Origin: a virus
IMG/VR virus record: IMGVR_UViG_3300001683_000001
Span: 16,647-80,646 of that record
Direction: 5' to 3' (one strand)
Length of the DNA stretch: 64,000 nucleotides
Shown here: positions 2-63,046 of the stretch, in pieces
How the letters are laid out: every line of letters begins with the position of its first letter
Numbering within the stretch: position 1 is the first letter of the stretch
Translations under genes and position numbers: made by a program
The notes under the pieces: model-generated
Databases searched by the model: none
What the model saw: the letters and a program-made list of their open reading frames with translations, nothing else
Told to the model about the DNA's origin: nothing

Positions 2-1189
2 TGGGAGGAATACCGGAAGAACCCCGTCATCCTCTACAACCACTCCAAGACCTACGGAGTCATAGGCAAGATGGAGAGGGTCAAGATTGGCGAGTTCAAC
101 GAGATGCAGGTCCCGATAGGAACCGCCATCATTGACGGTGGCGAGAAGGACATCGTGAGGAAGATTCGCAAGGGCTTCCTCAAGGCGTTCTCCATCGGCT
201 TCATCGCTCGCGGGATGGTCAAGGTCTGCGACGACGACGACGAGTGCTATCTCAGATTCACCGACATTGATTGGCTTGAAACTTCAATCGTAGATGTTCC
301 GGCAAGTCCTGACGCACTATTCTCGGTCGAGAAGTCAGTTCATCAGGTGAATGTTCCACAGAACATGAACGACGAATGTGGATGTGGAAACGAATGTTGC
401 GATGGAAAAGAGAAGGAGATGATTGCGCCCGATGTCTTCACCAGCGAGGAAGAAGCCCTTGCGCGAGCAGGGGAGATTGGATGTGCAGGTGTTCATGGGA
501 TGGAAGACGAGGGTGGCTACACGGTTTTCATGCCCTGCTCTACACATGATGAATACGAATCTACGATTGCCTCGGCTAAGAGCGAGTCGAATAGCGCATC
601 GCTCAATAACCCCCTCGCAGCACCCGTTGAGTCAATGACCGCCGATGAGATGGAAATGGAAGTCGCCAATGAACAGGTGATTGAGATGTCTGAGGCTCCC
701 GTAGAGGAAGTCAAAGTGGACATGATAGAAGACACAATTGAAAGTAAGGCTGTCGTAGAGGACCCCGAAGAAATCGAGGCCCCTGAACTACCGAAGCCTC
801 TCGATGTTCTCTTGGATGTCGCAACATCTCTCAAGGCGATTGACGAGCGACTAACCGCCGTCGAGTCATCTATCACACCACCGGCAGACGCGCCGGAGGT
901 TGCAGAACTCAAGGCCGCACTCGCTGAGAAGGATGATGCACTCGCTACCATCGCTCAGGAGAAGGCTACCCAAGATGCTCAGGACGCATACGAAGCAGAC
1001 ATAACTGCCCGCGTCCAAGAAGTCCTATCCTCCTACGGCGTAGAAGCATCGGCAGAGCGCAAGACCGCAACGCCCGATGAGAAAGCACCTTCCACAGACA
1101 TCACACGATTCGACCCACAACCCGAAACAAGCAAGGGCATGAACGGCCTTGCTAATTGGTTAGAGGCCAACCTAATCGCAAGAGGCTAA
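2..1189 (+). CDS. HK97-type prohead protease fused to a C-terminal scaffold region (5' end truncated by window)
   Basis: Frame is open from position 2 (WEEYRKNPVILYNH...). Protease motifs NPVILYNH, LKAFSIGF, LETSIVDVPA; acidic coiled-coil C-terminus; directly upstream of the capsid gene. Confidence 0.88.
   Translation, partial: WEEYRKNPVILYNHSKTYGVIGKMERVKIGEFNEMQVPIGTAIIDGGEKDIVRKIRKGFLKAFSIGFIARGMVKVCDDDDECYLRFTDIDWLETSIVDVPASPDALFSVEKSVHQVNVPQNMNDECGCGNECCDGKEKEMIAPDVFTSEEEALARAGEIGCAGVHGMEDEGGYTVFMPCSTHDEYESTIASAKSESNSASLNNPLAAPVESMTADEMEMEVANEQVIEMSEAPVEEVKVDMIEDTIESKAVVEDPEEIEAPELPKPLDVLLDVATSLKAIDERLTAVESSITPPADAPEVAELKAALAEKDDALATIAQEKATQDAQDAYEADITARVQEVLSSYGVEASAERKTATPDEKAPSTDITRFDPQPETSKGMNGLANWLEANLIARG
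351..366. promoter_or_regulatory. Palindrome box, inside the protease CDS
   Basis: ATGTTCCACAGAACAT. Confidence 0.75.
603..613 (+). promoter_or_regulatory. Class B (structural-gene) promoter motif, internal to the protease gene
   Basis: TCAATAACCCC; same or near-identical motif at 2337 and 4985, each 30-32 nt before an ATG. Confidence 0.6.
635..1189 (+). CDS. Putative scaffolding protein from an internal in-frame start in the protease gene
   Basis: ATG 635 is in frame (MTADEMEMEV...) and preceded at -32 by TCAATAACCCC, the motif found upstream of other structural genes. Confidence 0.6.
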   Translation: MTADEMEMEVANEQVIEMSEAPVEEVKVDMIEDTIESKAVVEDPEEIEAPELPKPLDVLLDVATSLKAIDERLTAVESSITPPADAPEVAELKAALAEKDDALATIAQEKATQDAQDAYEADITARVQEVLSSYGVEASAERKTATPDEKAPSTDITRFDPQPETSKGMNGLANWLEANLIARG

Positions 1190-1221
1190 TGGGAAGAACA
1201 CAAAAAAATAGAGGGAATAAA

Positions 1222-2268
1222 ATGACTGACGAACAATTTACAGATGTAGTAGAGCGAGTGAAAGCCGCATTGGGTGGAGCATCATCCAGCACAGGTGGAA
1301 CTATGCTACCGACTGAAACCGCAGACGAAATAATCCGCATCGTGTATGAGAGAAACTTCATGCGAAGTCTATTCCCCTCACTACCGATGGGAACACAGAC
1401 CGTGAATGTGCCGAGCCTCACAGGCTCCGTCACATTCCACGAACAGACGCTTTCCATGTCGGAGGCTGGAACCGCCGCAACCGAGTCGCGCAACGCGACC
1501 GGCGAATTGGTGCTGACCCTCAAGACCATGATAGCGAACTGCCCTGTTGGGAACTACCTGATTGCATACGGTGTTGAAGGATTACTCTCGGTCATCCGCG
1601 ACGACATCGGCTCTCGCCTTGCCTTCAACGAGGCAAGCCTATTCATCAACGGCGACACGACTACCACTTCATCCTACGCAGACAACATCAACGGACTCTA
1701 CAATGCCTCAACCAATGTGACCGGTGTGAGCGCAACCGTGAACGATTACCTACTGATGTTCAACGGCCTCCGCAAGCAAGCAGGGAAGACCGTCACAGTC
1801 GCAGGGACCTTTGGTCTTGATGACCTACGGACGGGCCTGAATGAATTGGGCGTGTATGCAGAGAACCGGGACGACCTCGCACTCATCGTGCCGAGGAACT
1901 TGGAAGTTCAGATTCTTGGAATCACCGAACTACAAACTGTGGACAAATATGGACCCAACGCGACTATCCTCAACGGAGAGGTCGGCAAGATTTACGGAAT
2001 CAGCGTCTTCGCTACTTCCGCTATCGCCACCAACCTCAACGCGACCGGTGTCTTCGACGGCATAACCACCAACAAGACGGTGGCTGTTCTGTGCAACAGG
2101 CGTTCCCCAATAATCGGGAACTCGACTGTGAGCGACCGCAGGTTCTCGATAGACTTCCACGACGAGCCAACGAAGGACCGATTCGTCTTGATTCCACGAC
2201 AGGACATAGCATTCGGTCTGCGCTACGCAGATGCCGTCTGCAAGATGGTCGGAATCACCACAGTCTGA
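1222..2268 (+). CDS. Major capsid protein (HK97 fold)
   Basis: 348 aa; GGTMLPTETADEII, EASLFINGD, GEVGKIYGISV, RQDIAFGLRY; follows the protease; GAGGG RBS before ATG 1222. Confidence 0.93.
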   Translation: MTDEQFTDVVERVKAALGGASSSTGGTMLPTETADEIIRIVYERNFMRSLFPSLPMGTQTVNVPSLTGSVTFHEQTLSMSEAGTAATESRNATGELVLTLKTMIANCPVGNYLIAYGVEGLLSVIRDDIGSRLAFNEASLFINGDTTTTSSYADNINGLYNASTNVTGVSATVNDYLLMFNGLRKQAGKTVTVAGTFGLDDLRTGLNELGVYAENRDDLALIVPRNLEVQILGITELQTVDKYGPNATILNGEVGKIYGISVFATSAIATNLNATGVFDGITTNKTVAVLCNRRSPIIGNSTVSDRRFSIDFHDEPTKDRFVLIPRQDIAFGLRYADAVCKMVGITTV

Positions 2269-2366
2269 GTCGGCTGACCGCTACTACTGACTGACTAACT
2301 ATCACCATTGAGGCCGCGCCTTGCGCGCCGCGACGGTGAATAACCCCAACAAGGGAGGAATAGGAC

Positions 2367-4455: not shown

Positions 4456-4471
4456 ATGTTCTGTGGAACAT
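4456..4471. promoter_or_regulatory. Palindrome box + CG tract
   Basis: ATGTTCTGTGGAACAT followed by cgcgtgcgcgtgcgcgcg. Confidence 0.85.
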
Positions 4472-4600
4472 CGCCCTCGCGTGCGCGTGCGCGCGAGCGC
4501 GTGAGGCCAAACTTCGATTCCAGCCTGATTTCGACGATTCGCCTCGCAGGTGTGTGGGGGCGCGGGCGCGTGTGTGCGCGCGGGCGCGAGGAACGGCGAG

Positions 4601-4614
4601 TTCAAGACGGTGGG
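4601..4614 (+). promoter_or_regulatory. Class A promoter motif
   Basis: TTCAAGACGGTGGG, ATG at +31. Confidence 0.75.
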
Positions 4615-5980: not shown

Positions 5981-8188
5981 GTGGCTGATGACGCCAAACT
6001 CAAGGTCATCATCGAAGGCGATTCAAAGGCTCTCATCGCCGCTGTTGGGGCGGCATCAGCCGCGACGGCATCAGGCGGCAAGGACATCAAAGGCTCTCTC
6101 GCTTCGATAGGGAAGGCATTCACCGTAATGGGAATCGCGGCGGTGGCGGCAGGGACGGCAATCACAATCGGATTCGTGAAGAAGTCGGTGAATGCGTTCA
6201 TCGAGTTTGAGCAAAGCCTGACCCGCATCAACGCTGTGATGACCGAACTCGATGCAACCCAACGACAGACTCTCCAACAGAGCATCCGCGACATCGCCGC
6301 CGAATCACAATTCACAGCCCGACAGGTCACGGACGCGGCGACCCAATTGGTCTTCGCAGGTATGGCCTATGACGACCTCATCGGTGACGAGGACAAAGGC
6401 ATCACAGGTGCAGTATCAGCCCTCGTTGATTTCGCCATCGCCGCTGGAACCCCGGTCGAAACAGCCGCCGAGATTTCGATGGCCGCGCTGAGTGGATTCG
6501 GCTTGGAAGTCAAGGAGATGACGAGGGTCATGGATGTGATGATGACCACCTACACCTCCGCCTTCGTGACGCTTGAGGAACTCGGTCAGACGATGAAGTT
6601 CCTCGCACCCACAGCGAGGGCCGCTGGTATCTCAATCGAGGAAGCCGCAGCAGCAGCGGGCGCACTCGGAAATGCGGGCCTAAAAGGGACTATTGCAGGG
6701 ACCGGGTTGCGTATGTCTATCAACAAATTACTCTCTCCGACTGACGATGCCCGGAAGGTCATGGACGAACTCGGACTCTCCTTCTTCACACTCACTCCGC
6801 GAGGCGAAACAGCGCAAGTCGCGTTGCAGGGATTGTCCGGTTCCTTGCGCCAATCCACACGCGAATTAGAGGCCACCAAGTTTGCCGTCGAAGCACTCAA
6901 CAACGAACTCTCAGACCTTTCAATCGAACAGCAGAGGAACAGCCTCGCCATCGCTGAGATTCGACAGCGAGCCGCGCGTCAGGGTAGAACCTTGACTGAC
7001 CAAGAAATCAAGACGGTCGAGAGGCTCCAAATGGCGAATGAGGACTTGAGCATCCAACAGCAACGACTCGGTATAGAGCAAGCGGTAGCGACGAAGGCAC
7101 AGGAGAAGAACTCTAAAACGGTGGCTGACCAAAAGCGGCTATATGGTAGCCTCAATCGAGAGGTTCAGATGCAGACCACAGGACTAACAAGCCTCGTTGA
7201 TGTGATTAACCAATTGGAGGCGGCAGGTGCTACCACATCACAGGTCTTGGAGATATTCTCTGTGCGCGGTGGAACCGCCATCATGGCTCTCTTGGGACAG
7301 GCTGATGCCTTCCGAGATTTGACCGAGGCTAACTACGAATCACAGGGAGCGTTGGCGGCATTCATTGAGGAAATCAAGACCTCGGTAGCCTTCGCTATGA
7401 TGCAAGTCAAATCGAACTTTGAAGAAACCCAATTGGTCATCGGTGAAATCTTCGCAGACCTACTCACGATGGATGGTGGGGTTGCCGAGGCGATGAACGG
7501 AATCGCGGAGAGTATTCGCGCTAACAAGGAGGATTGGAAGGACTTGGCTAAATCAATAGGCGACACCATCGTCCCGTTGCTTTTCGCAATACCCGCCCTC
7601 ATCGACGGCATCACACGCGCATTCGCAAACATGAGGCCATTCCTCAATGTAATCGTAGGGCTGTTCAAACTTCTCGGAATCATTCTATGGCCCGTCTTCA
7701 AACTCCTTGAGGGAATCGCATGGGTAGTGGAAAAACTCACCGGCTCAGGCAAAGCAGGTAGCGTGGCTGCTTCGGCAGGTGCGGGGGTGGCAACAGGAGC
7801 CGCTATCGGTAGTATCATTCCGGGTGTCGGCACAGCCGTCGGAGCCGTTGTTGGAGGTGTTGCCGGAACCATCGGAGCGTTGCACGAAGGCGGAGTCACG
7901 ACGGGGCCAAGTGTGAATCTCATTGGAGAGGCTGGCCCGGAGGCCATTATCCCACTCGACAAACTTCCCCGAATTATCGCAGATGCCGGATATGTTCCAC
8001 AGAACATGGCCGCATCCCCGCGCGGGGGGCCAGCGCAATCGGCAGGTGGATTAACCATCAATTTCGGAAGCATCTCTATCTCAGGTGGAACCAACATGAC
8101 GAGTGCATCAATTCGTGAAATCATGCGAACCGAGATGCCGAAAATCGTGAAGGACTCCTACGCAAGTGGAGCAAGGGGAGTGGTCTGA
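5981..8188 (+). CDS. Tail tape measure protein (TP901-like)
   Basis: FEQSL...SQFTARQV..A...GNAGLKGTIAGTGLR; C-terminal LHEGGV..IGEAGPEAIIPL. Confidence 0.93.
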   Translation: MADDAKLKVIIEGDSKALIAAVGAASAATASGGKDIKGSLASIGKAFTVMGIAAVAAGTAITIGFVKKSVNAFIEFEQSLTRINAVMTELDATQRQTLQQSIRDIAAESQFTARQVTDAATQLVFAGMAYDDLIGDEDKGITGAVSALVDFAIAAGTPVETAAEISMAALSGFGLEVKEMTRVMDVMMTTYTSAFVTLEELGQTMKFLAPTARAAGISIEEAAAAAGALGNAGLKGTIAGTGLRMSINKLLSPTDDARKVMDELGLSFFTLTPRGETAQVALQGLSGSLRQSTRELEATKFAVEALNNELSDLSIEQQRNSLAIAEIRQRAARQGRTLTDQEIKTVERLQMANEDLSIQQQRLGIEQAVATKAQEKNSKTVADQKRLYGSLNREVQMQTTGLTSLVDVINQLEAAGATTSQVLEIFSVRGGTAIMALLGQADAFRDLTEANYESQGALAAFIEEIKTSVAFAMMQVKSNFEETQLVIGEIFADLLTMDGGVAEAMNGIAESIRANKEDWKDLAKSIGDTIVPLLFAIPALIDGITRAFANMRPFLNVIVGLFKLLGIILWPVFKLLEGIAWVVEKLTGSGKAGSVAASAGAGVATGAAIGSIIPGVGTAVGAVVGGVAGTIGALHEGGVTTGPSVNLIGEAGPEAIIPLDKLPRIIADAGYVPQNMAASPRGGPAQSAGGLTINFGSISISGGTNMTSASIREIMRTEMPKIVKDSYASGARGVV
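7992..8007. promoter_or_regulatory. Palindrome box, inside the tape measure CDS
   Basis: ATGTTCCACAGAACAT. Confidence 0.75.
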
Positions 8189-14466: not shown

Positions 14467-14529
14467 GAAATCAGGCTGGAATCGCACTTTCCTCGCGTGT
14501 GCGCGCACACCTGCGCGCGAGAGTCGCTC

Positions 14530-14545
14530 ATGTTCTGCGGAACAT
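14530..14545. promoter_or_regulatory. Palindrome box + CG tract
   Basis: ATGTTCTGCGGAACAT. Confidence 0.85.
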
Positions 14546-14690: not shown

Positions 14691-14788
14691 AAGGGACCGT
14701 CGGCGTGGTCAGAAAATGCGATATTGAGGTCGAAACCTATTGATTTGCCCTATCTATTGATATAGGGGAGGCCGACGCAGGTCATTAC
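14691..14788 (+). promoter_or_regulatory. Class C extended promoter
   Basis: ~100-bp block homologous to 20922-21018; TTGATATAGGGG at -32. Confidence 0.7.
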
Positions 14789-15562
14789 ATGACCTGCGAA
14801 ATGAAGCCGAACAACACTCCAACCAGCCGAGGTTCCGTCGGAGTATGCTACGCTGCCGACCGCACCGACATCCAAGTCACTCACAGCCTTGAGAGCAACG
14901 GATGGAAGCCATGCAAGATGGGAGTCCTTGCGAACTTCTCAGTAGCGGCCCTCAAGGAACTCGGCCTCTCGACCTACCGCATCAACAGAATCGCAATCAA
15001 GTATGTCTTCGTCGAGGCTGGAACACAGACCCGATACGACGAGATTCGGAATGAGCCATCTTGGCTCGGCCTCTGCATGAATGAGGGCAAGTCACAACAC
15101 GGCGGGATGGATTGGCATGGGAACAAAATCCCTCAAACTCACTACTTCACCATCTATGTCCTCACCACCAAGAGGGTCAGGGGAGAGGTCATTCGCCGCC
15201 CTCTCAACGAGGTCATGCAGACTATCACTCACGAACTCGTCCATGTGGCTCAGGGAGCCGAGGACCGCCTTCACTACACCTACTACAACAAGGGCTGGAA
15301 GGTTCGCTACACGACCCCATCGGGAACCAGCATGACCTACTATCAGGGAGAGGACGAACTCTCATGGGAAGACCGAGGCCATGAGTGGGAGGCCGTCAGC
15401 CACCAGCGCGTGACCCTCGCCAACATCCTCAACCCGGACCACGATTCCCTCACCGTTCGCATCAAGGGCCTCAACCATGAGGACGCAAACAACGGCTGGA
15501 ATGTTCGCTACAATGAGATGGAGATGTCCTTCAATTACACCGAGATGGAGATGTCGGCATGA
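14789..15562 (+). CDS. Zincin-like metallopeptidase (HExxH), paralog 1
   Basis: TITHELVHVAQ...WEDRGHEWEA. Confidence 0.75.
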   Translation: MTCEMKPNNTPTSRGSVGVCYAADRTDIQVTHSLESNGWKPCKMGVLANFSVAALKELGLSTYRINRIAIKYVFVEAGTQTRYDEIRNEPSWLGLCMNEGKSQHGGMDWHGNKIPQTHYFTIYVLTTKRVRGEVIRRPLNEVMQTITHELVHVAQGAEDRLHYTYYNKGWKVRYTTPSGTSMTYYQGEDELSWEDRGHEWEAVSHQRVTLANILNPDHDSLTVRIKGLNHEDANNGWNVRYNEMEMSFNYTEMEMSA

Positions 15563-15848
15563 AGACCGAGAGATTCCTCGACGACCTGACGGCCGAAATC
15601 TTCGGGGGGTCGAACTGAGATGAGCGTGCAGATTCCCGCATGGTCTTTCGGCCTCATGGTGGTTGTGAGTATGCCCTTCGGAATGCTTCTCGTATGGGCC
15701 TTCGCTTCCGGCAAAATTACCCTCCGTCAATAGACGCATTCGACGCGCTCTATTGGCCTCTTTTCGACGAGGGTGAAATGGGTGTTTTCGGGAGGTCCTT
15801 CGCGCGTGCGCGCGCGTGGGGGTGCGCGAGCGCACGCGAGATTCGCCC

Positions 15849-15864
15849 ATGTTCCATAGAACAT
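15849..15864. promoter_or_regulatory. Palindrome box + CG tract
   Basis: ATGTTCCATAGAACAT. Confidence 0.85.
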
Positions 15865-17450: not shown

Positions 17451-17547
17451 ACGAATCTGACCCGATTAGAAGCCCATAGAGCGCGTCGGAGATGCTCAGG
17501 GGGTATCGGGAGGGGCAAGAGCGACAACAACCTCTACGACCCCTTCA

Positions 17548-20863: not shown

Positions 20864-20879
20864 ATGTTCTGTGGAACAT
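20864..20879. promoter_or_regulatory. Palindrome box + CG tract
   Basis: ATGTTCTGTGGAACAT. Confidence 0.85.
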
Positions 20880-20921
20880 GCCCGGTCCTCGCGTGAGCGC
20901 ATGCGCGCGCGCGTGAGGCGC

Positions 20922-21018
20922 AAGGGACCTCGGTGTAGTCAGAAATCGGGTTTTCAGGCTCCAAAACCATTGATTTACCCTATTCATTGATAAGGGAGAG
21001 GCCCCCCCTGCTCTCGCT
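20922..21018 (+). promoter_or_regulatory. Class C extended promoter
   Basis: TTGATAAGGGAG at -32; homologous to 14691-14788. Confidence 0.7.
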
Positions 21019-22235: not shown

Positions 22236-22316
22236 TTCCGGGTCAATAGAGGCCCCATAGAGGCCGTCTGACGCTCAGGACGCCCCGATACAGCCCTAAT
22301 GCCCTCAACGCGCTCT
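22226..22316 (+). repeat. ~90-bp dispersed repeat copy
   Basis: TTCTTGCTGATTCCGGGTCAATAGAGGCCCCATAGAGGCC...CCCGATACAGCCC...ACGCGCTCT. Confidence 0.8.
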
Positions 22317-22433
22317 GCACCCGCTCCCTCGCACTCGCCTCTGCGAGCGCACATCTGCGCCCACCCGCCCCTACGCGAGCGCATACCCGCGCGTGCGCGC
22401 CCACGCTCGCGCGCACACGCGAGAGAATCGCTC

Positions 22434-22449
22434 ATGTTCCACAGAACAC
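22434..22449. promoter_or_regulatory. Palindrome box + CG tract
   Basis: ATGTTCCACAGAACAC. Confidence 0.85.
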
Positions 22450-25832: not shown

Positions 25833-26720
25833 ATGGCGAAGAAGCGCAAGAATTACGACGCGATAATCGAGTCCTGTGATACGGGAACTTCGATGGCGAA
25901 TCAACCACCTCTCTATCACATCAAGTTCCAAGCGTTCTCAGGCGGGGGCAAGACCCACCAATCTCTTGCGAACTTCAACCACTTCTGCAAGGGTAGGAAG
26001 CCTGAAGAATGTCTGATGACCGTCATTGATTGTGACTTGGAAGGACAGGCTTCGCTCATTCGTCGCACAGACATTCTCAGTCCTGAACTTAGACCCCGTT
26101 TATTCCGCAAGGTTTGTAGTAATCCCGATGAGGTGAATGAGGTCACGCTGGCCTTCATTGACCTGCATAGGAAGCATTACGAAAAATACCCTGAGGGAGT
26201 GCGTGTAATGATGTTCGACAACGAGGCCGCATACTACCTGTCGTGCCGTGACTTCTACGCACAGGAAGTGCATGGTCAATCGGAGGCTGACCTACTCCTG
26301 TCCCGACAGGCTCAAGCCATCTCTGAAGGCAAGAAGACCCTCCCTGCATTTGCGGAGGGACAGATGCACTCCTACAAAGTAATCAACAGAGTGTTCTACA
26401 CGCCCTTCCAACGGCTCAAGATGGCCGCTGAGATGTTCCACTTCCACTTCTTCCTGACGACCCTGCTCAGGGAATACACCGAGAACTACGGACAGGCCAA
26501 CGAGAAGAAGGTCGTCGCGTCTGCTGGTCGTGCCGATATGACCGACCCCCTATTTGAGTGGATTATTGAACTCGATGTCCAGCAGAGGACGAAGCGTGGT
26601 AATTTGCAGACGCGCTACCGCGCCATCACGCGCAAGAGCCGAAATTGTAAGCCATTCCAAATGGTCAATCCCACTCCTGAGAAGTGGTGGAAGGCCGTCG
26701 AGGATAACACCTTCCGGTGA
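25833..26720 (+). CDS. RecA-fold ATPase (RadB/Sak4-like)
   Basis: AFSGGGKTH, VIDCD, MMFDNE, C-terminal KSR. Confidence 0.7.
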   Translation: MAKKRKNYDAIIESCDTGTSMANQPPLYHIKFQAFSGGGKTHQSLANFNHFCKGRKPEECLMTVIDCDLEGQASLIRRTDILSPELRPRLFRKVCSNPDEVNEVTLAFIDLHRKHYEKYPEGVRVMMFDNEAAYYLSCRDFYAQEVHGQSEADLLLSRQAQAISEGKKTLPAFAEGQMHSYKVINRVFYTPFQRLKMAAEMFHFHFFLTTLLREYTENYGQANEKKVVASAGRADMTDPLFEWIIELDVQQRTKRGNLQTRYRAITRKSRNCKPFQMVNPTPEKWWKAVEDNTFR

Positions 26721-28301: not shown

Positions 28302-28420
28302 GGCCGATTCGGACGACGCTCGACCTCGCGCGCCCTCGCGTGCGCGAGGCAAACCTCGATTTCAGCCCAATTTCGCAAGTCCCTCACGCGCGCGCGCATG
28401 CGCTCACGCGAGGACCGGGC

Positions 28421-28457
28421 ATGTTCCACAGAACATTTCCCCTGTTCGGGGGAACAC
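28421..28457. promoter_or_regulatory. Tandem palindrome boxes + CG tract
   Basis: ATGTTCCACAGAACAT (28421) and CTGTTCGGGGGAACAC (28442). Confidence 0.85.
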
Positions 28458-32634: not shown

Positions 32635-32765
32635 ACGGTGACGACATAGACGATTGGTCGGATAAGCACATCGGCAGTTTGGGATTGATGAGGACGGTTA
32701 TCGGGTTCGTCAATCTTATCATCGGGCTGGTCATCATGTCGAAACTATTCGGGTGGTTGGGATGA
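32631..32765 (+). CDS. Small single-pass membrane protein
   Basis: 44 aa with hydrophobic VIGFVNLIIGLVIM; ATGA overlaps at both ends. Confidence 0.55.
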   Translation: MNGDDIDDWSDKHIGSLGLMRTVIGFVNLIIGLVIMSKLFGWLG

Positions 32766-33241: not shown

Positions 33242-33257
33242 GTGTTCGTTGGAACAT
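33242..33257. promoter_or_regulatory. Palindrome box
   Basis: GTGTTCGTTGGAACAT. Confidence 0.7.
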
Positions 33258-34949: not shown

Positions 34950-35174
34950 ATGACCGACAGAGATGGTGAGCGAATGGATGTAATCGAGCAGCGACTCGGA
35001 GAGGTCTTGGAGAGGCTCCGAGATTTGGAGCGACGGCTCACCTCGATAGCATCTGCCGCGAACCCTACTGTCGTCAGCATTCGACATCCAAACCAGCGGA
35101 CACTATGGTCGCCTCATCAGGAGCGAACCGTAGGCGAGGAAGTTCTCAAGGGTGAGGACGATGAAGCCTTCTGA
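34950..35174 (+). CDS. Small coiled-coil protein
   Basis: 74 aa, heptad Leu pattern; class A promoter motif at -30. Confidence 0.6.
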   Translation: MTDRDGERMDVIEQRLGEVLERLRDLERRLTSIASAANPTVVSIRHPNQRTLWSPHQERTVGEEVLKGEDDEAF

Positions 35175-36052: not shown

Positions 36053-36142
36053 TCCTTGCTGATTCTGAGCCAATAGAGGGGCCATAGAGGCCGTTGAACC
36101 CCTCAGAGGTCCCGATACGGAACTTTGGCCCTCCATGCGCTC
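36053..36142 (+). repeat. ~90-bp dispersed repeat copy
   Basis: TCCTTGCTGATTCTGAGCCAATAGAGGGGCCATAGAGGCCGTTGAA...CCCGATAC. Confidence 0.8.
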
Positions 36143-36247
36143 AGGCACGCTCGCCTCCGCACTCGCCTCCGCACTCGCACTCGCCCTCGCGCGCTCCCTC
36201 GCCCTCGCGTGCGCGCGTGGGCGCGCACCCACACGCGAGAACCGGGC

Positions 36248-36263
36248 GTGTTCCACAGAACAT
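36248..36263. promoter_or_regulatory. Palindrome box + CG tract
   Basis: GTGTTCCACAGAACAT. Confidence 0.85.
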
Positions 36264-37406: not shown

Positions 37407-38623
37407 TGACCATGCAGTTCAGTATCGAAGACTTCGATGATGTATGCAACCACTTCGGATTCGACACCTATCCACGCACAGTCGGCAACCCTCGGCAGAG
37501 CCTCGTCTATGCGAGTGAAGAAGCCTACCTCAAGTTCTCCAAATGGAACGGGAACTCCCCCTGCTTCATCAGCACCGGGGGCTACTCCAACATCCAATTC
37601 GACATAGGCGGCAAGCAATCTCCGAGGACAATCCACCACACTCTGACCTTCTTCGACTTCGACCACGAAACGAAGCCTGAGAATGCCTTCGCGGATGCAC
37701 AGCGATTGTCTGAGTTCCTTCGGGAGATGGACATCGCTCATTGGGTGCAATACTCAGGGTCGAAGGGCTACCACCTGTTCATCATCCATGCTCCGACCAA
37801 GTTCAAGTTCGACTATCGAGATGGGAGCAACGAGGCTCTCAAGCGGATTCTCCATCAGACCCAAGACTACCTCCGTCAGACCATCGGCCTCAACACCCTC
37901 GACGAGCAGACGATGGGCGACCCCAAGCGACTGTGCCGATTCCCATACTCACTCCATGTGGATAGACATGGGAAGGCATCGGGTCATCATGCACTTCCGG
38001 TTCCGGTTGAGGAACTCGATGTGGTGAATCACGACGACATCGTGATGCGCGCATGTTCTGTGGAACATCCCGAATTGCCTGAGATTATCGGACGACGACT
38101 GACCCTCCGAGAGTTCATCTCAGAATTGGGCATCCGACTCGACGCACCCGAAACAAAGATTCGGCCTGTCGTCGGAGGTGACTTCGACTTCGGGGATTCT
38201 GATAAGGAGGCGTTCCGATTCATCGCGTCACTTGAGCATAGGTGCATGGGCGTGGTGAATGAACTCAGACGACGCAACCCACCACACAAAGCGAGAGTCT
38301 TCGCCGCCCTGTTCGCCAAGACACTCGGCCTTCCTCAATCGGCGTTTGAGAAGGTGTGGATGGAGATGGGAACCAGCATGGGATATGTGGACTTGCACAA
38401 CCACGAACACCGAGCCTATCAGATGGCGACCATCTTCGACAACCCGAACTACCATTCCTTCCCCACTTGCACCACCCTCAAGGCGAACGGATGCTGTGTG
38501 GGTGAGATATGCCCTCGCTATGCTGAGATGGAGCGCATCGACTATCAACCGAAGCAAGTGGAGCGCAAGTGGTCGAGCAAGAGTGGGAGCAACGAAGACG
38601 CCGAAATATGGGAAGATGTTTGA
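37403..38623 (+). CDS. Archaeo-eukaryotic primase: PriS catalytic domain fused to PriL-like Fe-S C-terminal domain
   Basis: FFDFD, YSGSKGYH, DPKRLCRFPYS; C-terminal RCM...PTC..LK..GCC...C. Confidence 0.88.
   Translation: MMTMQFSIEDFDDVCNHFGFDTYPRTVGNPRQSLVYASEEAYLKFSKWNGNSPCFISTGGYSNIQFDIGGKQSPRTIHHTLTFFDFDHETKPENAFADAQRLSEFLREMDIAHWVQYSGSKGYHLFIIHAPTKFKFDYRDGSNEALKRILHQTQDYLRQTIGLNTLDEQTMGDPKRLCRFPYSLHVDRHGKASGHHALPVPVEELDVVNHDDIVMRACSVEHPELPEIIGRRLTLREFISELGIRLDAPETKIRPVVGGDFDFGDSDKEAFRFIASLEHRCMGVVNELRRRNPPHKARVFAALFAKTLGLPQSAFEKVWMEMGTSMGYVDLHNHEHRAYQMATIFDNPNYHSFPTCTTLKANGCCVGEICPRYAEMERIDYQPKQVERKWSSKSGSNEDAEIWEDV
38053..38068. promoter_or_regulatory. Palindrome box, inside the primase CDS
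   Basis: ATGTTCTGTGGAACAT preceded by atgcgcgc. Confidence 0.75.
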
Positions 38624-39425
38624 GAGCATCGAGCGCACACGCGCCTTCCTCGATGACGCATCGCTTGGTCAAATGCTCGGCTTCTATCGCTACCTCCACG
38701 ACCATCTTCAAACTGACCCAACAGACGACCTTTCGCCTATGGATGTCTATGACCTGCGTGAGCAGGTGGGAGGGATGATTCTGACTGAGATGATGGGGCG
38801 TCATAGGCGCATAGACCACCGCGAGCATTGGGTCATGGTGGAGTATCTCTCGCACCTCGGATTTGAGGTCGTTCATCTCAAGACAGGGGAGGGAGATATG
38901 AAGACTGAACGAGTCGCTATCGAGAGGAAGGAGGACGACTTCCTTCCCTCTCTATTTGACGGTCGAAGTCTGCGTCAATTGAGTGCGATGAGAGAGGCAT
39001 CTGAGTTCTCCTACCTATTGGTCACGAAGTCATTCCAGCAGGTCAAGGAGGGGGCGTTGAAGCAGGGTGTGAGCGAGGCCACACTCCTGTCGTTCGTTGC
39101 ATCCCTGTGCGCGGTAGGCTACCCTCCAATCTTCATCGAAGGCAAGCACGATGCGGCCTCCCTGATTCACCGCATCGTCGGCAAAATCGAGGACGATAAA
39201 CACCGTCTGTATGTGCCTCGACCAGCCTCTCCACAGGTGTTGGATTATCGCAACGCACTCATCGAAGGACTACCCAATATCGGTCCCAAATTGCGGCGTC
39301 GAATCATCGCGATTTACCCATCCATCTCATCTCTATGCGAGGCCACCATCGAGGATTTGACGAACATCGAAGGTGTCGGTAAAACCACCGCCGAACGCAT
39401 CATTTCGGTCCTCAATTCAGCCTGA
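38616..39425 (+). CDS. ERCC4/XPF-family structure-specific nuclease with (HhH)2
   Basis: IDHRE, GD..., IERK..DF..SLFDGR..Q; GLPNIG and IEGVGKTTA. Confidence 0.88.
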   Translation: MFESIERTRAFLDDASLGQMLGFYRYLHDHLQTDPTDDLSPMDVYDLREQVGGMILTEMMGRHRRIDHREHWVMVEYLSHLGFEVVHLKTGEGDMKTERVAIERKEDDFLPSLFDGRSLRQLSAMREASEFSYLLVTKSFQQVKEGALKQGVSEATLLSFVASLCAVGYPPIFIEGKHDAASLIHRIVGKIEDDKHRLYVPRPASPQVLDYRNALIEGLPNIGPKLRRRIIAIYPSISSLCEATIEDLTNIEGVGKTTAERIISVLNSA

Positions 39426-39462: not shown

Positions 39463-39478
39463 ATGTTCGCGGGAACAT
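39463..39478. promoter_or_regulatory. Palindrome box + CG tract
   Basis: ATGTTCGCGGGAACAT. Confidence 0.8.
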
Positions 39479-39628
39479 CCGCGCTCTCGCACGCGCACAC
39501 GCGAGGGAAAATCACCCCAATCAGGTTGGAATCAACGATTCCGCCACATCTACTCCACCCCCTACGAACCTGACTATCCAACCAAACTGAATACAACCGT
39601 TCATAAGGAACCTAATGACCCCGTAGGG

Positions 39629-44221: not shown

Positions 44222-44228
44222 ACGCCCG

Positions 44229-44288
44229 TAGAGCGCGTCGAGGGTATTTGGGCTGTATGGGGGCCTCGGAGGGCATAGACGCGCTCTA
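44229..44288 (-). repeat. Dispersed repeat copy (stem part)
   Basis: TAGAGCGCGTC...GGGCTGTATGGGGGCC...GACGCGCTCTA. Confidence 0.7.
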
Positions 44289-44387
44289 TCACGCCGTAGG
44301 GAGGGTGTATGGGGCTGTTCAACGCCGCCTCCTACCCATCGAATCTCACAGAATGGTGAATAGCCTCAAGAGTCCCTCAACAATCCA

Positions 44388-44687
44388 ATGGACACCATGA
44401 TGGATTACAGCATCGTTTGGACAACGGCAGGGAAGGAGATGGTCGGCCACGACATTCACGGTGACGAACTCATCAAGGTCACTACGGGTGGAACCCATTG
44501 GGATTTCATCTTCATTCGTCATGGAGGATTTGGGAAGGTCAGAGTAGGAGCAGGTTGTCGCTACAACCCTCTCGCTATGATTGAGCAGATGCACACCCAT
44601 CTATTGAACGAGGACAGCATTGAAAACGACATCGAGATGAGCGACATCATTGACTTCTCAAAATCCCTCAGACGCAGGTGGGGATGA
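44388..44687 (+). CDS. Hypothetical protein
   Basis: 99 aa; TGAATAGCC motif at -31. Confidence 0.6.
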   Translation: MDTMMDYSIVWTTAGKEMVGHDIHGDELIKVTTGGTHWDFIFIRHGGFGKVRVGAGCRYNPLAMIEQMHTHLLNEDSIENDIEMSDIIDFSKSLRRRWG

Positions 44688-44965
44688 TGCTCACTTGGGT
44701 CAGAGCAATTGGAGCCGCGACCCATCTATTCGCATACGGCTTGAATATGGAACTCCTTGCTCATCTCGTTGAGCATGAAGACAGGTGGGTGATGAACGCT
44801 GGCGGGAGGCAATTCACGGTAGCAGGGAATGGCTGTGCCGACCCTGTTGCATTCATCGAGCAGATGGTATCTCCGACTTTGCCGAAGACCATTCACATCG
44901 AGGATTCGTGGATAGTTCAGTTCTACCCTCCCAATGGTGAATCGTGGGAAGTTTGGGGCGAGTGA
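44684..44965 (+). CDS. Hypothetical protein, weak paralog of the upstream gene
   Basis: Shared G.C..P.A.IEQM motif; ATGA overlap. Confidence 0.55.
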   Translation: MMLTWVRAIGAATHLFAYGLNMELLAHLVEHEDRWVMNAGGRQFTVAGNGCADPVAFIEQMVSPTLPKTIHIEDSWIVQFYPPNGESWEVWGE

Positions 44966-45010: not shown

Positions 45011-45026
45011 ATGTTCTGTGGAACAT
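45011..45026. promoter_or_regulatory. Palindrome box + CG tract
   Basis: ATGTTCTGTGGAACAT. Confidence 0.85.
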
Positions 45027-45182
45027 GCCCGTCCCTCGCGGGCGCAGGTGCGCCCCCGCGTGCGCGCGCGCGCGTAGGCGCATGTCCGAGCGGATGCCCG
45101 CCCACGCACGCAGGGCGCGAGCGCGAGGTTCCCGACACCGTGAAAACCCGCCAATCGTCAGACTATTGGTTGAGGTCAGGCT

Positions 45183-53693
<8,511 letters not shown>

Positions 53694-53987: not shown

Positions 53988-54034
53988 CCAATCCCTCGCG
54001 CGCCCTCGCGCGTGCGCCCACGCCCGCGAGGCCA

Positions 54035-54050
54035 ATGTTCCACAGAACAC
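54035..54050. promoter_or_regulatory. Palindrome box + CG tract
   Basis: ATGTTCCACAGAACAC; partial second copy ending CCACAGAACAT at 54090. Confidence 0.85.
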
Positions 54051-54175: not shown

Positions 54176-56233
54176 ATGCCTGAGGCGAACGGAGTTTGGA
54201 CATTGGAAGAAGCGCGGTCGAGTCACCTACACAGCCCCGCCCTCGCGGAAGCACTAACTCAACATCTCCCCGTTGCTCAACCTGTCGTGGATTTGGGATG
54301 TGGGATGGGCTACTATGCACTCGCGCTCCAACAGGCGGGGTGGAAGGTCAGAGCCTTCGACGGCACACCCGACCTCGACTCGATAGGAGTCTTCCGAGGC
54401 ATTGAGGAACTCGACCTATCTCAGCCATTCACCACCTCTGCTCAGTCGAGCGTCATCTGTCTTGAGGTGGGTGAGCATATCCCTCTTGAATGCGAGCAGA
54501 CCTTCCTCGACAATCTCGCCGCCAACACCAAGCGTCGGCTCATCCTATCGTGGGCCATTCCGAATCAAGGAGGCAAGGGACATATCAACGAACGACCCAA
54601 TGACTACATCATCAACGAAATGGGGAAGCGTGGGTTCGTCTTCAAGCCCGAACCGACGAACTCGTTGCGGAGCGTCACGGAGGATAATGTGTGGTGGTTC
54701 AAGGACTCGCTCATGGTGTTCGACCGATTGAAGGTCGGCCTCGCCGTGATAGCCAAGAACGAGAGAAAAAATATCGGGCGCGCGATAGACAGCGTGATTG
54801 ACTTCGTGGACGAGTTTTGCTTCGACCTGTCGGGAACCACAGACGACACCGAGGCTGTGGCGACCAAGCACCTCGGACCTCTCGCTGGTTCGTTCTTCCA
54901 TGACGAATGGTTGGGACCCGCAGAGTCGCTCAACAGGTGCATCAGGAATCTCGATGAGAGAGGATGCGATTGGATTATCAGATTGGATGCCGACACGACG
55001 ATGGAAGGTGAACTCCCTGACCTCGCCACTCTGCCCTCGGACATCGAGGGAGTGTCCATCCCAATCACCAACGATGACGGGTGGAGGGTCTGCTATCGTG
55101 CATGGGTGTTCAGACCGACAGCCCACTACAAAGGAGTGAGGCATGAGGGGCTGTGGGTATCGAAGACTATCTCATGGGATGACCTGCGTGTCGTCCATCA
55201 TCGGGACAGCGGCGCGCGTCCACGCGAGGCGGCGACCTACCTCGCAGATGCAGAGGCCATGCTTGAGGCTCTCAAGACCGAGGAAGACGAGGGACTCAGA
55301 ACTCGGTATGTCTTCTACATAGCAAAGGCATACAGGGATGCGGATGAACCACTCCAAGCACTTGCCTACTATCGTCAGCGAGTCACGATGGGAGGCTACT
55401 ATCAGGAGGTCGGATTCGCTCTGCGCGAAATAGCGATTCTAAGCGAGTCGAAGGCCGATTGGGCCAATGCTCTATCCACCACTCCCGAACGCGCAGACAC
55501 AGCCTTCTATGCTCTACAATCAGCACTCTCGCTCGATGACCCTGAGTGGCTTGCAGAAGTGGTCGCCCTGACTGAGCATCAAGAGTGGGATGAGCGTTCC
55601 ATGTTTGCGGACCCATCTTATCACACTCAAGCACGCGCGCTACTTTCAGAGGCGGGGTCGGGGCTGAATCCAAATCCCATGATTCCCTACCCGCTGTGGC
55701 TGATGTGGGAGGAAGCCATTTCACCTGAGGTCTGCGACGAGTGGTTGGAGTCATGCAGACGGCTCCCGACGCAAGATGCTGTGACCTTCGGAGGTCATGG
55801 CGACACCCACCGCAAGACCAACATCAGATGGGTGAATCCCGAAGGCGATAGCGCGCCTATACTCGATGCCCTGTGGGAGTATGTCCAACGAGCCAACGAG
55901 GTGTTCAATCTCGATGTGACTCACCTACCCCCACTCCAATTCACAGAGTATGCCGAGGCGGGTCATCACTACTCCACTCACCACGACATCAATTGGAATC
56001 GAGAGGACGGTCTGCATCGGAAGATTTCAATCACCGTCCAATTGTCCGACTCGGACGATTACACCGGCGGTGAGTTCAGTTTTAACACGACCGAGAATCC
56101 TGACCCGACCGCCGTTAGGAAGAAGGGAACCATCCTATGCTTCCTCTCCTATCTCGACCACATGGTATCGCCCATCGAATCCGGGTCGAGGACATCACTC
56201 GTTGGTTGGGCCGAGGGACCTCGTTGGAGATAG
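54176..56233 (+). CDS. SAM methyltransferase + GT2 glycosyltransferase/TPR + 2OG-Fe(II) oxygenase fusion
   Basis: VDLGCGMG..CLEVGEHI; IAKNE..LDAD..VRHE..RYVFYIA; HYSTHHD..RKISITVQLS..GGEF..H.V.P...G.R.SLVGW. Confidence 0.88.
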   Translation: MPEANGVWTLEEARSSHLHSPALAEALTQHLPVAQPVVDLGCGMGYYALALQQAGWKVRAFDGTPDLDSIGVFRGIEELDLSQPFTTSAQSSVICLEVGEHIPLECEQTFLDNLAANTKRRLILSWAIPNQGGKGHINERPNDYIINEMGKRGFVFKPEPTNSLRSVTEDNVWWFKDSLMVFDRLKVGLAVIAKNERKNIGRAIDSVIDFVDEFCFDLSGTTDDTEAVATKHLGPLAGSFFHDEWLGPAESLNRCIRNLDERGCDWIIRLDADTTMEGELPDLATLPSDIEGVSIPITNDDGWRVCYRAWVFRPTAHYKGVRHEGLWVSKTISWDDLRVVHHRDSGARPREAATYLADAEAMLEALKTEEDEGLRTRYVFYIAKAYRDADEPLQALAYYRQRVTMGGYYQEVGFALREIAILSESKADWANALSTTPERADTAFYALQSALSLDDPEWLAEVVALTEHQEWDERSMFADPSYHTQARALLSEAGSGLNPNPMIPYPLWLMWEEAISPEVCDEWLESCRRLPTQDAVTFGGHGDTHRKTNIRWVNPEGDSAPILDALWEYVQRANEVFNLDVTHLPPLQFTEYAEAGHHYSTHHDINWNREDGLHRKISITVQLSDSDDYTGGEFSFNTTENPDPTAVRKKGTILCFLSYLDHMVSPIESGSRTSLVGWAEGPRWR

Positions 56234-56619: not shown

Positions 56620-56635
56620 ATGTTCTGTGGAACAC
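56620..56635. promoter_or_regulatory. Palindrome box between divergent genes
   Basis: ATGTTCTGTGGAACAC. Confidence 0.8.
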
Positions 56636-56783: not shown

Positions 56784-56785
56784 GT

Positions 56786-56869
56786 GAATCCGAGCCGAGG
56801 AAGGTCGTATAGAGCGCATCGAGTGGATTAGAAGTCCCGATACAGCCCTGACTACCTTGACGCGCTGTA
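56786..56869 (+). repeat. ~90-bp dispersed repeat copy
   Basis: ATAGAGCGCATCGA...TTAGAAGTCCCGATACAGCCC...TTGACGCGCT. Confidence 0.7.
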
Positions 56870-61293: not shown

Positions 61294-61866
61294 ATGCAAT
61301 TGACTGACGAAGAATTGGTAGTGACTGATGATGATGCGCTGGTCAGGTGGGTAGCGATACTGCTGGTGGAAGGAAAATCAGAGTCAGAGATACGGAGGAT
61401 GCTGACTCAGAATGCCGTCTTGGAGTCGCGCGCCTCTCCCGACCGGTGGTCCCGGCTTATGTTCGCTGGAACATTGGCGGCGGAGGGCATGCAATCACTC
61501 GCAATCTCTCGCGCTGAACTCGACAGCACCGACTATCTCCGACTCGACTCGTATGTGCGACGCAAGCAGAACATTGACCGGCTGGAACGACTCATCGAAA
61601 AGGCCGAGCCGATGGCCGACAGCGTGAGCAAACTCAACAGCGTGTCCTTCATGGTCGGTGGCATCAACAACGCACAGGACAAGATGGACAAGATGACGGG
61701 TGCGGCGGCGTCCCAACCACAGGTCGTGGTCAATGTGGGCTACGACCCACTCGACCAATTCAGAGCGGTCATCCAACAGGAGGCAGGTGAGCCTCATGTT
61801 ATCGAGGTCAGCGATGCTACAATCTCCACCGTTCAGTCAGGCTCGGATGAGTCAGAGGAAGAATGA
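61294..61866 (+). CDS. Putative terminase small subunit
   Basis: N-terminal HTH-like segment (GKSESEIRRML), helical middle, QVVVNV strand, acidic tail; AGGTGA RBS. Confidence 0.4.
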   Translation: MQLTDEELVVTDDDALVRWVAILLVEGKSESEIRRMLTQNAVLESRASPDRWSRLMFAGTLAAEGMQSLAISRAELDSTDYLRLDSYVRRKQNIDRLERLIEKAEPMADSVSKLNSVSFMVGGINNAQDKMDKMTGAAASQPQVVVNVGYDPLDQFRAVIQQEAGEPHVIEVSDATISTVQSGSDESEEE

Positions 61867-61922
61867 ACCGTCGAGTGTGATGGTTGCGGAGCGTCACCGG
61901 TGACGAACTGATGCTGGTGCAA

Positions 61923-61938
61923 ATGTTCCCACGAACAT
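61923..61938. promoter_or_regulatory. Palindrome box + CG tract
   Basis: ATGTTCCCACGAACAT. Confidence 0.8.
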
Positions 61939-62491
61939 GTGCGGTCGCTCACGCGGGCGCGCGCGCCCACGCACGCGAGAGCGCGCAGGTCTGTGTGCGA
62001 AAACAATCCCGCCGAAATGATGTCGGGGGTCTTGCCGGATTCCATGACTTGTCGAGAGCAAGTGCCGACTTGTTGGGAATGTGTCTGCATCATTGTTTTG
62101 AGGAACATGCCGATGGCTGTGATGTGGGAACCTTGCGTGACGCTCCGCAACGCTCACTTCTACCTCCTTCTTCTCTCTCTATCTGACTACTACTACCTAC
62201 AATTAAATCAATGAGAGAGGTAGTGGGACACACACACGACAGGGGGTCAAGGTGTGTGTGTGTCTGAGGCTGTCGGGGGTCCGCGTAATTGTTGCTCAAC
62301 GCTCTCTCGTTTGACCTCCTTTTCGTTCCTTCCGAGGCCCCCCCTAACCTCGGCCAGCACCATCTTTAATCTCCAATCCACACGCACACTCTCCGCGAAA
62401 ACGAGAAGCCAATTTTTACTATGTTGTAGTCAGATTTTTGTTTTTTTCAGACTCCAAGAGGGGTCAGTCTGATAGGGAGTGATGGGGTCGG

Positions 62492-63046
62492 ATGTATATG
62501 CCGAGGCCAATCCGCACCGAAGACGACATCGTGGGTTTGACTCTCTACATCAACGAGGTTTGGTTCCTCACACCCATGCAACAGGCGAAGCACGCATTCA
62601 TGCGTCATGTCGCTGTGCGAATCGTGCGTGTGACCACAGGCATAGACGGGCGTGTTGATTCTCTACATGTCGTCAAGGCCAATTGCTTCTCACCCAAGTC
62701 GAGCAAGAAGTCCGATTGGTTCAGGAAGCATTGGAGATTGCCGACAGAGGCATTCGTCAAACCCATCCGTCGCTACCGCTGGTATGACCAAGAGAAGTTC
62801 CGCTGGAAGGTTGCCTATGGCGACCCTGAGAAGCGGTGGGAGCCTGAAGTCGCTCGCCTTCGCGCGCGTGGAGGTGCGGGCTGGACTGACGGGCAGGGAC
62901 CGACTCTCGGATGGTGGCTCAACAACCCCAAACTCATCGAGCAAATTGTCCTGAGCAGATGGGATGAGAGGAAGCATGGAGCGAGCGGACCTCAGTATCA
63001 GCAAATGTTCCCACGAACACGCGAGGATAGCCACTCAGCACCTTGA
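62492..63046 (+). CDS. Hypothetical W/R-rich protein
   Basis: 184-aa ORF. Confidence 0.6.
   Translation: MYMPRPIRTEDDIVGLTLYINEVWFLTPMQQAKHAFMRHVAVRIVRVTTGIDGRVDSLHVVKANCFSPKSSKKSDWFRKHWRLPTEAFVKPIRRYRWYDQEKFRWKVAYGDPEKRWEPEVARLRARGGAGWTDGQGPTLGWWLNNPKLIEQIVLSRWDERKHGASGPQYQQMFPRTREDSHSAP
63005..63020. promoter_or_regulatory. Palindrome box, inside CDS 62492-63046
   Basis: ATGTTCCCACGAACAC. Confidence 0.75.

Follow-up and report, generated by a model that had tools for sequence, protein, structure and literature searches.

Dispersed palindromic boxes and their dialects in the genome of an archaeal-type tailed virus

Genome context, the box, and its hairpin tract

We analyzed a window of 64,000 nucleotides, bases 16,647 to 80,646 of a single 80,646-bp virus record (IMG/VR record IMGVR_UViG_3300001683_000001, here called G000), through which a short palindrome of the form RTGTTC-N4-GAACAY, here called the box, recurs between and within genes. 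Genes were called with our own open reading frame (ORF) heuristics, and positions are those of the window unless genome coordinates are stated. Nearly all of the long ORFs lie on the plus strand. They include structural and packaging genes (for the large terminase, a tape measure protein, and a PKD-bearing tail protein), replication genes (for a family-B DNA polymerase, PolB; an XPD-like helicase; an RFC-like clamp loader; and a primase-polymerase), and nuclease genes of the ERCC4-HhH2 and PD-(D/E)XK types. No tRNA gene was found by a tRNA search. A 91-bp direct repeat at both termini of the record may be an assembly overlap; the sequence at its start, GTTCGTGGGA, resembles half of a box and is not one.

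A putative core promoter, TCAAGACGGTGGG followed by an ATG 16 to 18 nt downstream (30 nt in one case), was detected 11 times. Its invariant 13-mer, T(C/G)AAGA(C/G)GGTGGG, lies at 4602, 17549, 19325, 22508, 28497, 29938, 34921, 36326, and 56936 in the window and at genome positions 4930 and 5068, and is probably the core promoter (a TATA-like plus a G-rich element) of leaderless mRNAs; the 11 copies of the same layout fit an archaeal TATA-type promoter of such transcripts. The promoter would shift several gene starts, that of PolB to near 29968, in agreement with the 888-amino-acid (aa) length of a 98% identical homolog. The cultured PolBs nearest to that of G000 are those of haloarchaeal tailed viruses (23 to 25% identity), and the relatives of G000 come from marine metagenomes, including one Tara Oceans contig. 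Together with the promoter type, these affinities make the assignment of G000 to the archaeal-type tailed viruses well supported. The magrovirus gene set, as published, is matched by G000 only in part.

All coordinates of the roughly 20 boxes listed in an earlier note on this DNA proved correct. The window holds 20 exact matches to RTGTTC-N4-GAACAY, compared with 0.00 in 100 dinucleotide shuffles, and 21 copies of the 14-bp core TGTTC-N4-GAACA, compared with 0.04 expected; the list had missed the copy at 61459, and its entry at 28442 matches the 14-bp core only. The core occurs 27 times in the whole genome, as 17 perfect 16-mers and 10 copies with one mismatch, which is nearly always at the outermost base. 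Sequences with two or three mismatches occur at chance frequency (4 seen versus 3.2 expected for two mismatches), and the "degenerate copy" reported at 62093, with two mismatches, falls into this background. There is no tail of decayed copies; copy quality is all-or-none. A frequent 16-bp form is ATGTTC-N4-GAACAT. The arms are invariant around a variable 4-nt spacer, in which CACA/TGTG, described earlier as the usual form, is indeed the commonest (12 of the 21 window copies), the spacer being otherwise free. Sites occur once per 1.5 to 5 kb, across all modules.

The common variant of the box includes TGTTCCAC, one half-site of parS, and parS sites are 16-bp palindromes that can lie in genes. 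A role as parS-type centromeres, with a ParB-family protein as reader, is nevertheless extremely unlikely for the boxes, and the link to parS drawn in the earlier note was not supported. The variable spacer contains the CAC of the half-site, and the box falls 2 bp short of the length of parS; instead of the two conserved 8-bp half-sites of parS (TGTTNCAC), only TGTTC and GAACA are conserved, around a variable 4-nt spacer. The sister forms of the box in related viruses (TGTTGA-N2-TCAACA, etc.; see below) are unlike parS, and 27 to 34 copies per genome amount to a density far above that of known parS systems. A six-frame search for ParB_N (PF02195) gave no match at an E value of ≤1, and control genomes were positive.

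The coupling of the box to CG/CA/TG tracts, also reported earlier, was confirmed. A box is found no more than 45 nt away from 13 of the 16 alternating purine-pyrimidine tracts of at least 13 nt (in 2000 random trials, the mean was 0.6 and the maximum 5), and a tract of this type is close to 18 of the 27 boxes. Its sequence is an inverted repeat, CTCGCG...CGCGAG, that varies greatly in its interior, with a length of 12 to ~56 nt, and it is prone to Z-DNA and cruciform formation. A semi-conserved linker, 8 to 9 nt long in most copies, joins it to the box, and the GC-rich tract, linker, and box form a composite module of 45 to 80 bp, with the tract on the 5' side of the box in 11 copies and on its 3' side in 8. 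The composites at 20864-20917 and 28382-28437 are 100% identical over 56 bp, in opposite orientations, and other pairs are 92 to 94% identical over 31 to 38 bp. These identities, together with the conserved linker and the in-frame carriage of the module in three genes (see below), demonstrate that the module has been duplicated. In the Tara contig (L243; 84 to 90% DNA identity), the box of the composite at 20864-20917 is unchanged and the tract carries a 17-nt indel, which marks the tract as the fastest-evolving part of the module.

Positions of the boxes and rearrangement junctions

The 27 boxes comprise ~16 intergenic composites, 3 in-frame composites, and 8 solo or secondary boxes, at least 3 of which lie inside conserved genes. 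Some of the intergenic composites lie in false 5' extensions of ORFs, such as the one at 4456-4506, where the tract (4472-4506) follows the box (4456-4471) on its 3' side. Three composites are found 59 to 63 nt upstream of a core promoter. The first (tract, 22375-22423; linker; box, 22434-22449) precedes the promoter at 22508 by 59 nt. The second (tract, 28382-28413; box, 28421-28436) is accompanied by a second box at 28442-28457; the promoter at 28497 follows 61 nt after the first of these boxes and 40 nt after the second, and the site is the junction of a transposed replication block. The third (tract, 36204-36239; 9-nt linker; box, 36248-36263) lies 63 nt upstream of the promoter at 36326 and corresponds to an ancestral control region ahead of a 271-aa gene, where relatives keep a box in their own form.

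An intergenic composite at 14491-14545 (tract, 14491-14521; 9-nt linker; box, 14530-14545) marks a synteny break upstream of a zincin cassette, and another (tract, 15799-15840; 9-nt linker; box, 15849-15864) lies 69 nt upstream of the relocated large terminase gene, terL. The composite at 20864-20917 has its parts in reverse order (box, 20864-20879; 9-nt linker; hairpin, 20888-20917). At 39463-39505 (box, 39463-39478; linker; hairpin, 39486-39505), an intergenic composite coincides with a synteny break after the ERCC4-HhH2 nuclease gene. A box at 45011-45026, joined by a 9-nt linker to a long tract (45035-45090), lies upstream of a gene for a 2836-aa collagen-like protein, and a tract at 53994-54031, with a 4-nt linker and a box at 54035-54050, lies upstream of a three-enzyme fusion gene. 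A further composite has its box at 61923-61938, a 10-nt linker, and its hairpin at 61948-61981.

The three in-frame composites are carried by genes for PolB, an AAA-type ATPase, and the tape measure protein. In PolB, the composite (31781-31824) encodes NVPQNMPDLAGAHARL as part of a hypervariable loop that separates motif B from DTDS; it is present in the 98% identical PolB (P0001, from another sample) and absent where PolB is ≤65% identical. The composite at 35715-35769 adds ~14 to 16 aa to the ATPase (gene, 35152-36051) relative to its relatives. In the tape measure gene, a box at 7992-8007 and a short palindrome, CCCCGCGCGGGG (8016-8027), lie in frame in a variable C-terminal stretch, and the relative G004 lacks ~20 aa at this position (7992-8027).

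The solo box ATGTTCCACAGAACAT at 351-366 lies in the linker of the prohead protease and encodes NVPQNM; that at 38053-38068 lies in the primase-polymerase gene (ACSVEH), whose length differs from those of relatives by ≤1 residue; and that at 61459-61474 (LMFAGT) lies in a conserved 200-aa gene that shows no indel at this position. Further solo boxes are found directly 3' of the stop codon of an ORF at 32753-33241 (33242-33257), in a non-conserved stretch between gene blocks (56620-56635), and near the 3' end of an ORF at 62492-63046 (63005-63020).

The earlier note had placed boxes both at module boundaries and inside genes, and positions between as well as inside genes were confirmed. In a comparison with G001, boxes occur at 9 of 12 synteny breaks and at 4 of 20 collinear junctions (Fisher P = 0.0035), a comparison in which gap length is a confounder (see below). 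Two replication blocks that are adjacent in the relative L251 have swapped order in G000, with composites at all three junctions (28421, 36248, and 39463). The terminase gene has moved in G000, and its new place is bracketed by the composites at 14530 and 15849; composites also flank lineage-specific cassettes (20864/22434 and, in genome coordinates, 8787/10104). Gene blocks have probably been shuffled by recombination between copies of the module, as these arrangements suggest.

A rival explanation is a selfish miniature mobile element, consisting of box and hairpin, without function for the virus, and spread by transposition. Such an element would resemble a miniature inverted-repeat transposable element, a repetitive extragenic palindromic element, or a Rickettsia palindromic element, the last of which lands in frame in genes. 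The two orientations of the composites (11 versus 8), the identical 56-bp pair, the in-frame carriage in three proteins, the copies at rearrangement junctions, and the rarity of the exact word in relatives (at most one stray copy) and its absence from the public collections scanned all speak for such an element. We nevertheless regard a mobile element as unlikely. No match to Y1 (PF01797), TnpB (PF07282), integrase, or resolvase domains (PF00589 and PF00239) was found in the genome, and no terminal inverted repeats, shared ends, or target duplications were seen in aligned flanks. The interior and length of the tract differ greatly between copies around an invariant box, and solo boxes sit in conserved coding sequence with a length change of ≤1 residue. 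Moreover, transposition cannot produce the variant boxes that occupy orthologous in-gene positions in related viruses, described below.

Several other features lie close to the boxes. A perfect 12-bp palindrome, GTCACCGGTGAC, occurs at 20824, 22460, and 61893, 11 to 30 nt from a box and on the side opposite to the hairpin tract. At L242 4722-4880 (genome coordinates), two exact boxes and one box with two mismatches bracket T runs (6 to 7 nt) and an A7 run. The T-run pair (TTTTTTCTCG twice) is the only such pair in the genome, and a hairpin tract and a core promoter follow; a layout of T run plus box is also present in the control region of relatives. The site could be origin-like, or could combine an operon terminator with a control region. 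Runs of at least six T, checked as terminators, number only five in G000.

A second promoter-like block, ATTGATTTRCCCTATNNATTGATA(W)RGGG with an ATG ~24 nt downstream, is found at 14739-14762 and 20969-20992, ahead of two cassette genes (a WLM/zincin-like gene at 14789 and a 131-aa ORF at 21019). A near-identical block lies upstream of a 162-aa gene in L251 (~7330), whose PolB is ~62% identical. SprT/WLM-type zincin paralogs are encoded at L242 5846-6397 (a core gene) and at 14789-15562 (in the box-flanked cassette), as indicated by language-model look-alikes (0.95 to 0.96) and a weak Pfam WLM match. The 2836-aa ORF (45183-53693) contains Gly-X-Y collagen-like tandem repeats, and the fusion gene after it (54176-56233) combines methyltransferase, GT2 glycosyltransferase, and 2-oxoglutarate-Fe(II) (2OG-Fe[II]) oxygenase domains. 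The gene for the ERCC4-HhH2 structure-specific nuclease (XPF/Mus81 type; 38259-39425) ends just before the composite at 39463, and the gene for the PD-(D/E)XK nuclease (26717-27925) lies upstream of it; either enzyme could act on cruciforms of the palindromic modules. A dispersed intergenic repeat family of ~60 to 90 bp that is unrelated to the box (...ATAGAGCGCGTC...CCCGATACAGCCC...), with internal inverted symmetry, occurs at ~17451-17530, 22236-22298, 36060-36125, 44222-44330, and 56784-56856 in the window and at ~8650 and ~11660 in the genome; its copy at 44222 coincides with one of the synteny breaks that lack a box.

Dialects of the box in related viruses

In five related genomes (terminase 70 to 76% identical), the exact word of G000 is absent or present as one stray copy. 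This apparent lack of conservation was overturned by de novo palindrome counts. A sub-clade shares a palindrome architecture of 5+4+5 with different arms, and each genome uses one dialect exclusively, other dialects being absent or limited to at most 1 to 2 stray copies. The arm is TGTTC in G000 (27 copies in 81 kb examined), TGTTG in G006 (34 copies in 65 kb) and G009 (32 copies in 58 kb), TGTCG in G010 (14 copies in 21 kb), and TATTG in G004, G007, and G008 (14 to 15 copies in 43 to 82 kb); G001 to G003 have no box (0 copies in 58 to 83 kb). Reversed-pattern controls for TRTYGA-N2-TCRAYA gave 0 matches in five relatives. Each dialect is one symmetric substitution away from TGTTG-ANNT-CAACA. 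The earlier note had counted a lack of conservation in related genomes as a refutation; this is not supported, as the exact word is missing there and the 5+4+5 system is conserved. Scans of IMG/VR and of JGI/ENA metagenomes for the composite returned chance single matches only, plus one true relative, the Tara contig. In 185,579 GTDB species genomes, scanned for the hairpin-end-plus-box pattern only, matches were scattered and single, with no multi-copy host locus among the first 120 matches listed. The box-less G002 and G003 (loci L043 to L050) carry another palindrome, TATAAC-N6-GTTATA, with many copies exactly 24 nt upstream of an ATG; this spacing suggests a palindromic TATA-box promoter of leaderless genes.

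Orthologous sites were mapped through translated alignments. All 30 of 30 sites are conserved between G006 and G009, which share a dialect, and 8 of 11 mappable sites of G006 carry the other dialect at the aligned place in G010. DNA alignments of PolB and the primase-polymerase show the change as T>C in one arm, matched by A>G in the opposite arm. The protease box of G000, aaT GTT CCA CAG AAC ATg (NVPQNM), corresponds, in a codon-by-codon alignment, to a TGTTG box of G006 (GVEANM); it is the 1 of 16 mappable in-gene sites of G006 at which G000 retains a box. The orthologous intergenic control region, between genes for a 130-aa protein and the 271-aa protein, holds 1 to 3 boxes in all four of the four lineages compared. 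In L251, 12 of the 14 boxes lie inside ORFs, all in one reading frame, as the alternative frame would create a TGA.

These comparisons bear on the possibility that the palindromes act as hairpins in RNA or single-stranded DNA, as terminators, processing sites, or stabilizers of polycistronic transcripts. Base pairing is kept across the dialect changes, the CG tract folds into a GC-rich stem, and the three composites 59 to 63 nt upstream of a core promoter would mark the ends of upstream transcription units. However, the stems have just 5 to 6 bp and are nonetheless invariant in sequence within a genome, composites occur in both orientations, and most of the copies in relatives lie inside ORFs. 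In G008, a TATTG arm is paired with a TATCG arm at 7 of 16 sites, and 3 of these 7 would give C·A mismatches if read on the forward strand of the contig, which carries PolB. Such mixed arms argue that half-sites are read independently and that there is no hairpin to preserve. The composites have modest folding z-scores (-0.5 to -3.8), and Rfam 15 gave no match in the window at the gathering score. We therefore consider a role as hairpins very unlikely.

The word might instead be kept abundant by DNA modification or repair, of host or virus, or be the site of a host factor that differs between host lineages. The methyltransferase-linked highly iterated palindromes (HIP1) of cyanobacteria are a precedent. 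The boxes are iterated through coding sequence, where they alter encoded residues; the dialects could mirror different hosts, and no reader was found among the ~75 viral ORFs. Against this stand the absence of N6/N4, C5, and Dam-type methyltransferase domains (PF01555, PF00145, and PF02086) in a six-frame search of the virus, the ten specified base pairs, which are long for a modification site, and the difference in dialect between the closely related viruses G006 and G010. An origin in modification, repair, or a host factor is, in our estimate, unlikely as well.

A putative dimeric reader and comparison with known systems

We find it reasonably probable that the box is the G000 dialect of a clade-wide set of dispersed docking sites with two-fold symmetry, read by a putative sequence-specific dimeric DNA-binding protein that is probably encoded by the virus. 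Copies are identical within a genome and change jointly between genomes, some at the same places despite amino acid changes, which points to a co-evolving sequence-specific reader. Arms of 5 bp with centers 9 bp apart make a dimer the natural one, in which one monomer would contact each arm. The earlier note had proposed sites for a dimeric protein that are not simply promoter operators, and the invariant arms, free spacer, missing decay tail, and orthologous one-letter dialects are in keeping with that proposal.

The array would act at the level of the whole genome rather than as classical promoter operators, with reader and sites co-evolving and the dialect serving as a specificity label. 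Most of the old in-gene sites would have been lost in G000, and sites of the new dialect are carried mostly on the hairpin-linker-box module. After the dialect change, the lineage may have regained sites mainly by copying the module into intergenic control regions and variable protein loops, and recombination between module copies may then have reshuffled gene blocks.

Several points weigh against the docking-site reading. Only one box of G000 shares its position with a box in a different dialect, and G000 is thus tied to the clade chiefly by the common 5+4+5 architecture and by arms that differ in a single symmetric step. Searches of the ~75 ORFs with Pfam and PHROGs revealed no helix-turn-helix (HTH), ribbon-helix-helix (RHH), or ParB match, and it is possible that the reader is encoded by the host. 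One candidate, a winged-helix-like protein of 130 aa encoded beside the control region, was rejected as the reader, as it is also present in box-less relatives and its variable residues do not follow the dialect. Synteny breaks have longer gaps, which confounds the enrichment of boxes there. Spacing is only weakly more regular than random (P = 0.08 in G000 and P = 0.007 in L251).

For the 130-aa protein, the AlphaFold model (pLDDT, 46) is too poor to use, and a PDB profile search gave no match. Three further candidates were set aside. A 95-aa protein (44678-44965) was detected only in box-bearing genomes, but it has no DNA-binding features, and G001 may hold a weak homolog. By eye, the product of the 271-aa gene that follows the control region resembles a sliding clamp, and the PDB gave no sequence match for it; the product of a 183-aa gene is SprT-like by language-model look-alikes. 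Both are poor candidates.

As to what the putative docking sites would do, their density, spread over modules, tolerance in coding sequence, and dialect evolution liken them to stoperators and to chromosome-organizing palindrome arrays. By analogy, the array may, tentatively, act as stoperators do, in repression or insulation across the genome, and also set the specificity of immunity. Chromosome bridging or partition, as at parS, matS, or KorB sites, is a more doubtful function. The association with junctions and the tract prone to Z-DNA and cruciforms would fit dispersed entry sites for replication or recombination like the homologous regions (hrs) of baculoviruses, which we consider less likely still. 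More speculatively, and with considerable doubt, the array could be a fast-evolving "self-address" system in which the reader marks or bridges the viral chromosome at dozens of sites, a single symmetric base change creates a mutually incompatible dialect and hence immunity or exclusion between co-infecting relatives, and re-seeding by the hairpin-plus-box cassette is followed by reshuffling of replication and packaging modules through recombination between cassette copies.

The clade amounts to a natural experiment, in which a single symmetric base change sets at least four dialects apart, in part at orthologous sites within essential genes. With such a series, the reader can be sought by association mapping and tested with cognate versus non-cognate oligonucleotides, and genome-level control in uncultured viruses of marine archaea becomes concretely accessible for the first time. 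The coincidence of box-bearing repeats with junctions of replication and packaging modules also bears on the mosaicism of these abundant viruses.

Known systems resemble the array in part. The parS/ParB, matS/MatP, NBS/Noc, and OB/KorB systems use short dispersed palindromes, also within genes, whose dimeric readers bridge DNA or spread along it; the density in G000 is 10 to 20 times higher, and no ParB-family protein is encoded. Baculovirus hrs are dispersed palindromes bound by the viral dimer IE-1; they are species specific, act as enhancers and origins, and are sites of rearrangement and gene insertion. They are AT-rich palindromes of ~30 bp in large insect viruses, usually in tandem clusters and, as far as is known, strictly intergenic, whereas the units in G000 are single sites of 14 to 16 bp, some of them in genes. 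Among archaeal tailed viruses, the haloviruses HF1 and HF2 have Class I and II intergenic repeats that are strategically placed with respect to transcripts (PMC7230728). These repeats are long, AT-rich, and promoter-containing (PMC7230728), unlike the short palindromes and in-gene sites described here. What they share with G000 is the presence of repeated intergenic elements in an archaeal tailed virus, some of the G000 composites lying at a fixed distance from the core promoter.

For the stoperators of Cluster A mycobacteriophages, the site consensus is said to differ between sub-lineages, to co-evolve with the reader, and to set immunity specificity; the sites are reportedly oriented with transcription and located mostly in short intergenic gaps of temperate phages with an integrase or parABS. 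The likeness to G000 lies in many dispersed copies (27 in G000) with a lineage-specific consensus, each genome using a single dialect and orthologous sites changing from one dialect to another. For the L5 gp71-type repressor, ~20 to 35 genome-wide sites are described, with one virus protein as reader (PMC9283540, PMC6550527), and the site is there described as asymmetric and the repressor as monomeric (PMC9283540). The sites of G000 are palindromic and orientation-free (11 composites in one orientation versus 8 in the other), and the genome has no Phage_integrase, Resolvase, or ParB_N domain and no repressor-like HTH in its ~75 ORFs.

Full-text literature searches found no description of such an array for magroviruses or Poseidoniales viruses. 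The statement in the earlier note that no such system was known in archaeal tailed viruses was too strong as a claim of novelty, because dispersed dyad-symmetric words have been reported in tailed viruses, if never explained. The closest is the 17-bp dyad repeat TGTTCGG-N3-CCGAACA of Cluster O mycobacteriophages, with 34 copies in Corndog. Its authors infer that a dimeric protein binds it, consider a part in transcription unlikely, and assign it no function; recombination between sites is implicated in indels (PMC4351075). Both arrays consist of dozens of copies in a tailed-virus genome (~70 kb for Cluster O; 27 copies in G000), with invariant arms, a variable spacer, and both coding and intergenic sites, the latter in short intergenic regions in Cluster O. 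The outer five bases, TGTTC...GAACA, are identical, probably by coincidence, and G000 matches the Cluster O word in these bases only. Cluster O differs in belonging to viruses of bacteria and in having 7-bp arms and a 3-bp spacer, compared with 5- to 6-bp arms and a 4-bp spacer in G000, and neither an attached hairpin tract nor a dialect series with symmetric orthologous switches has been reported for it. What is new in G000 and its relatives is this dialect series, the fusion of the box to a hairpin tract, and the link to the rearrangement of modules.

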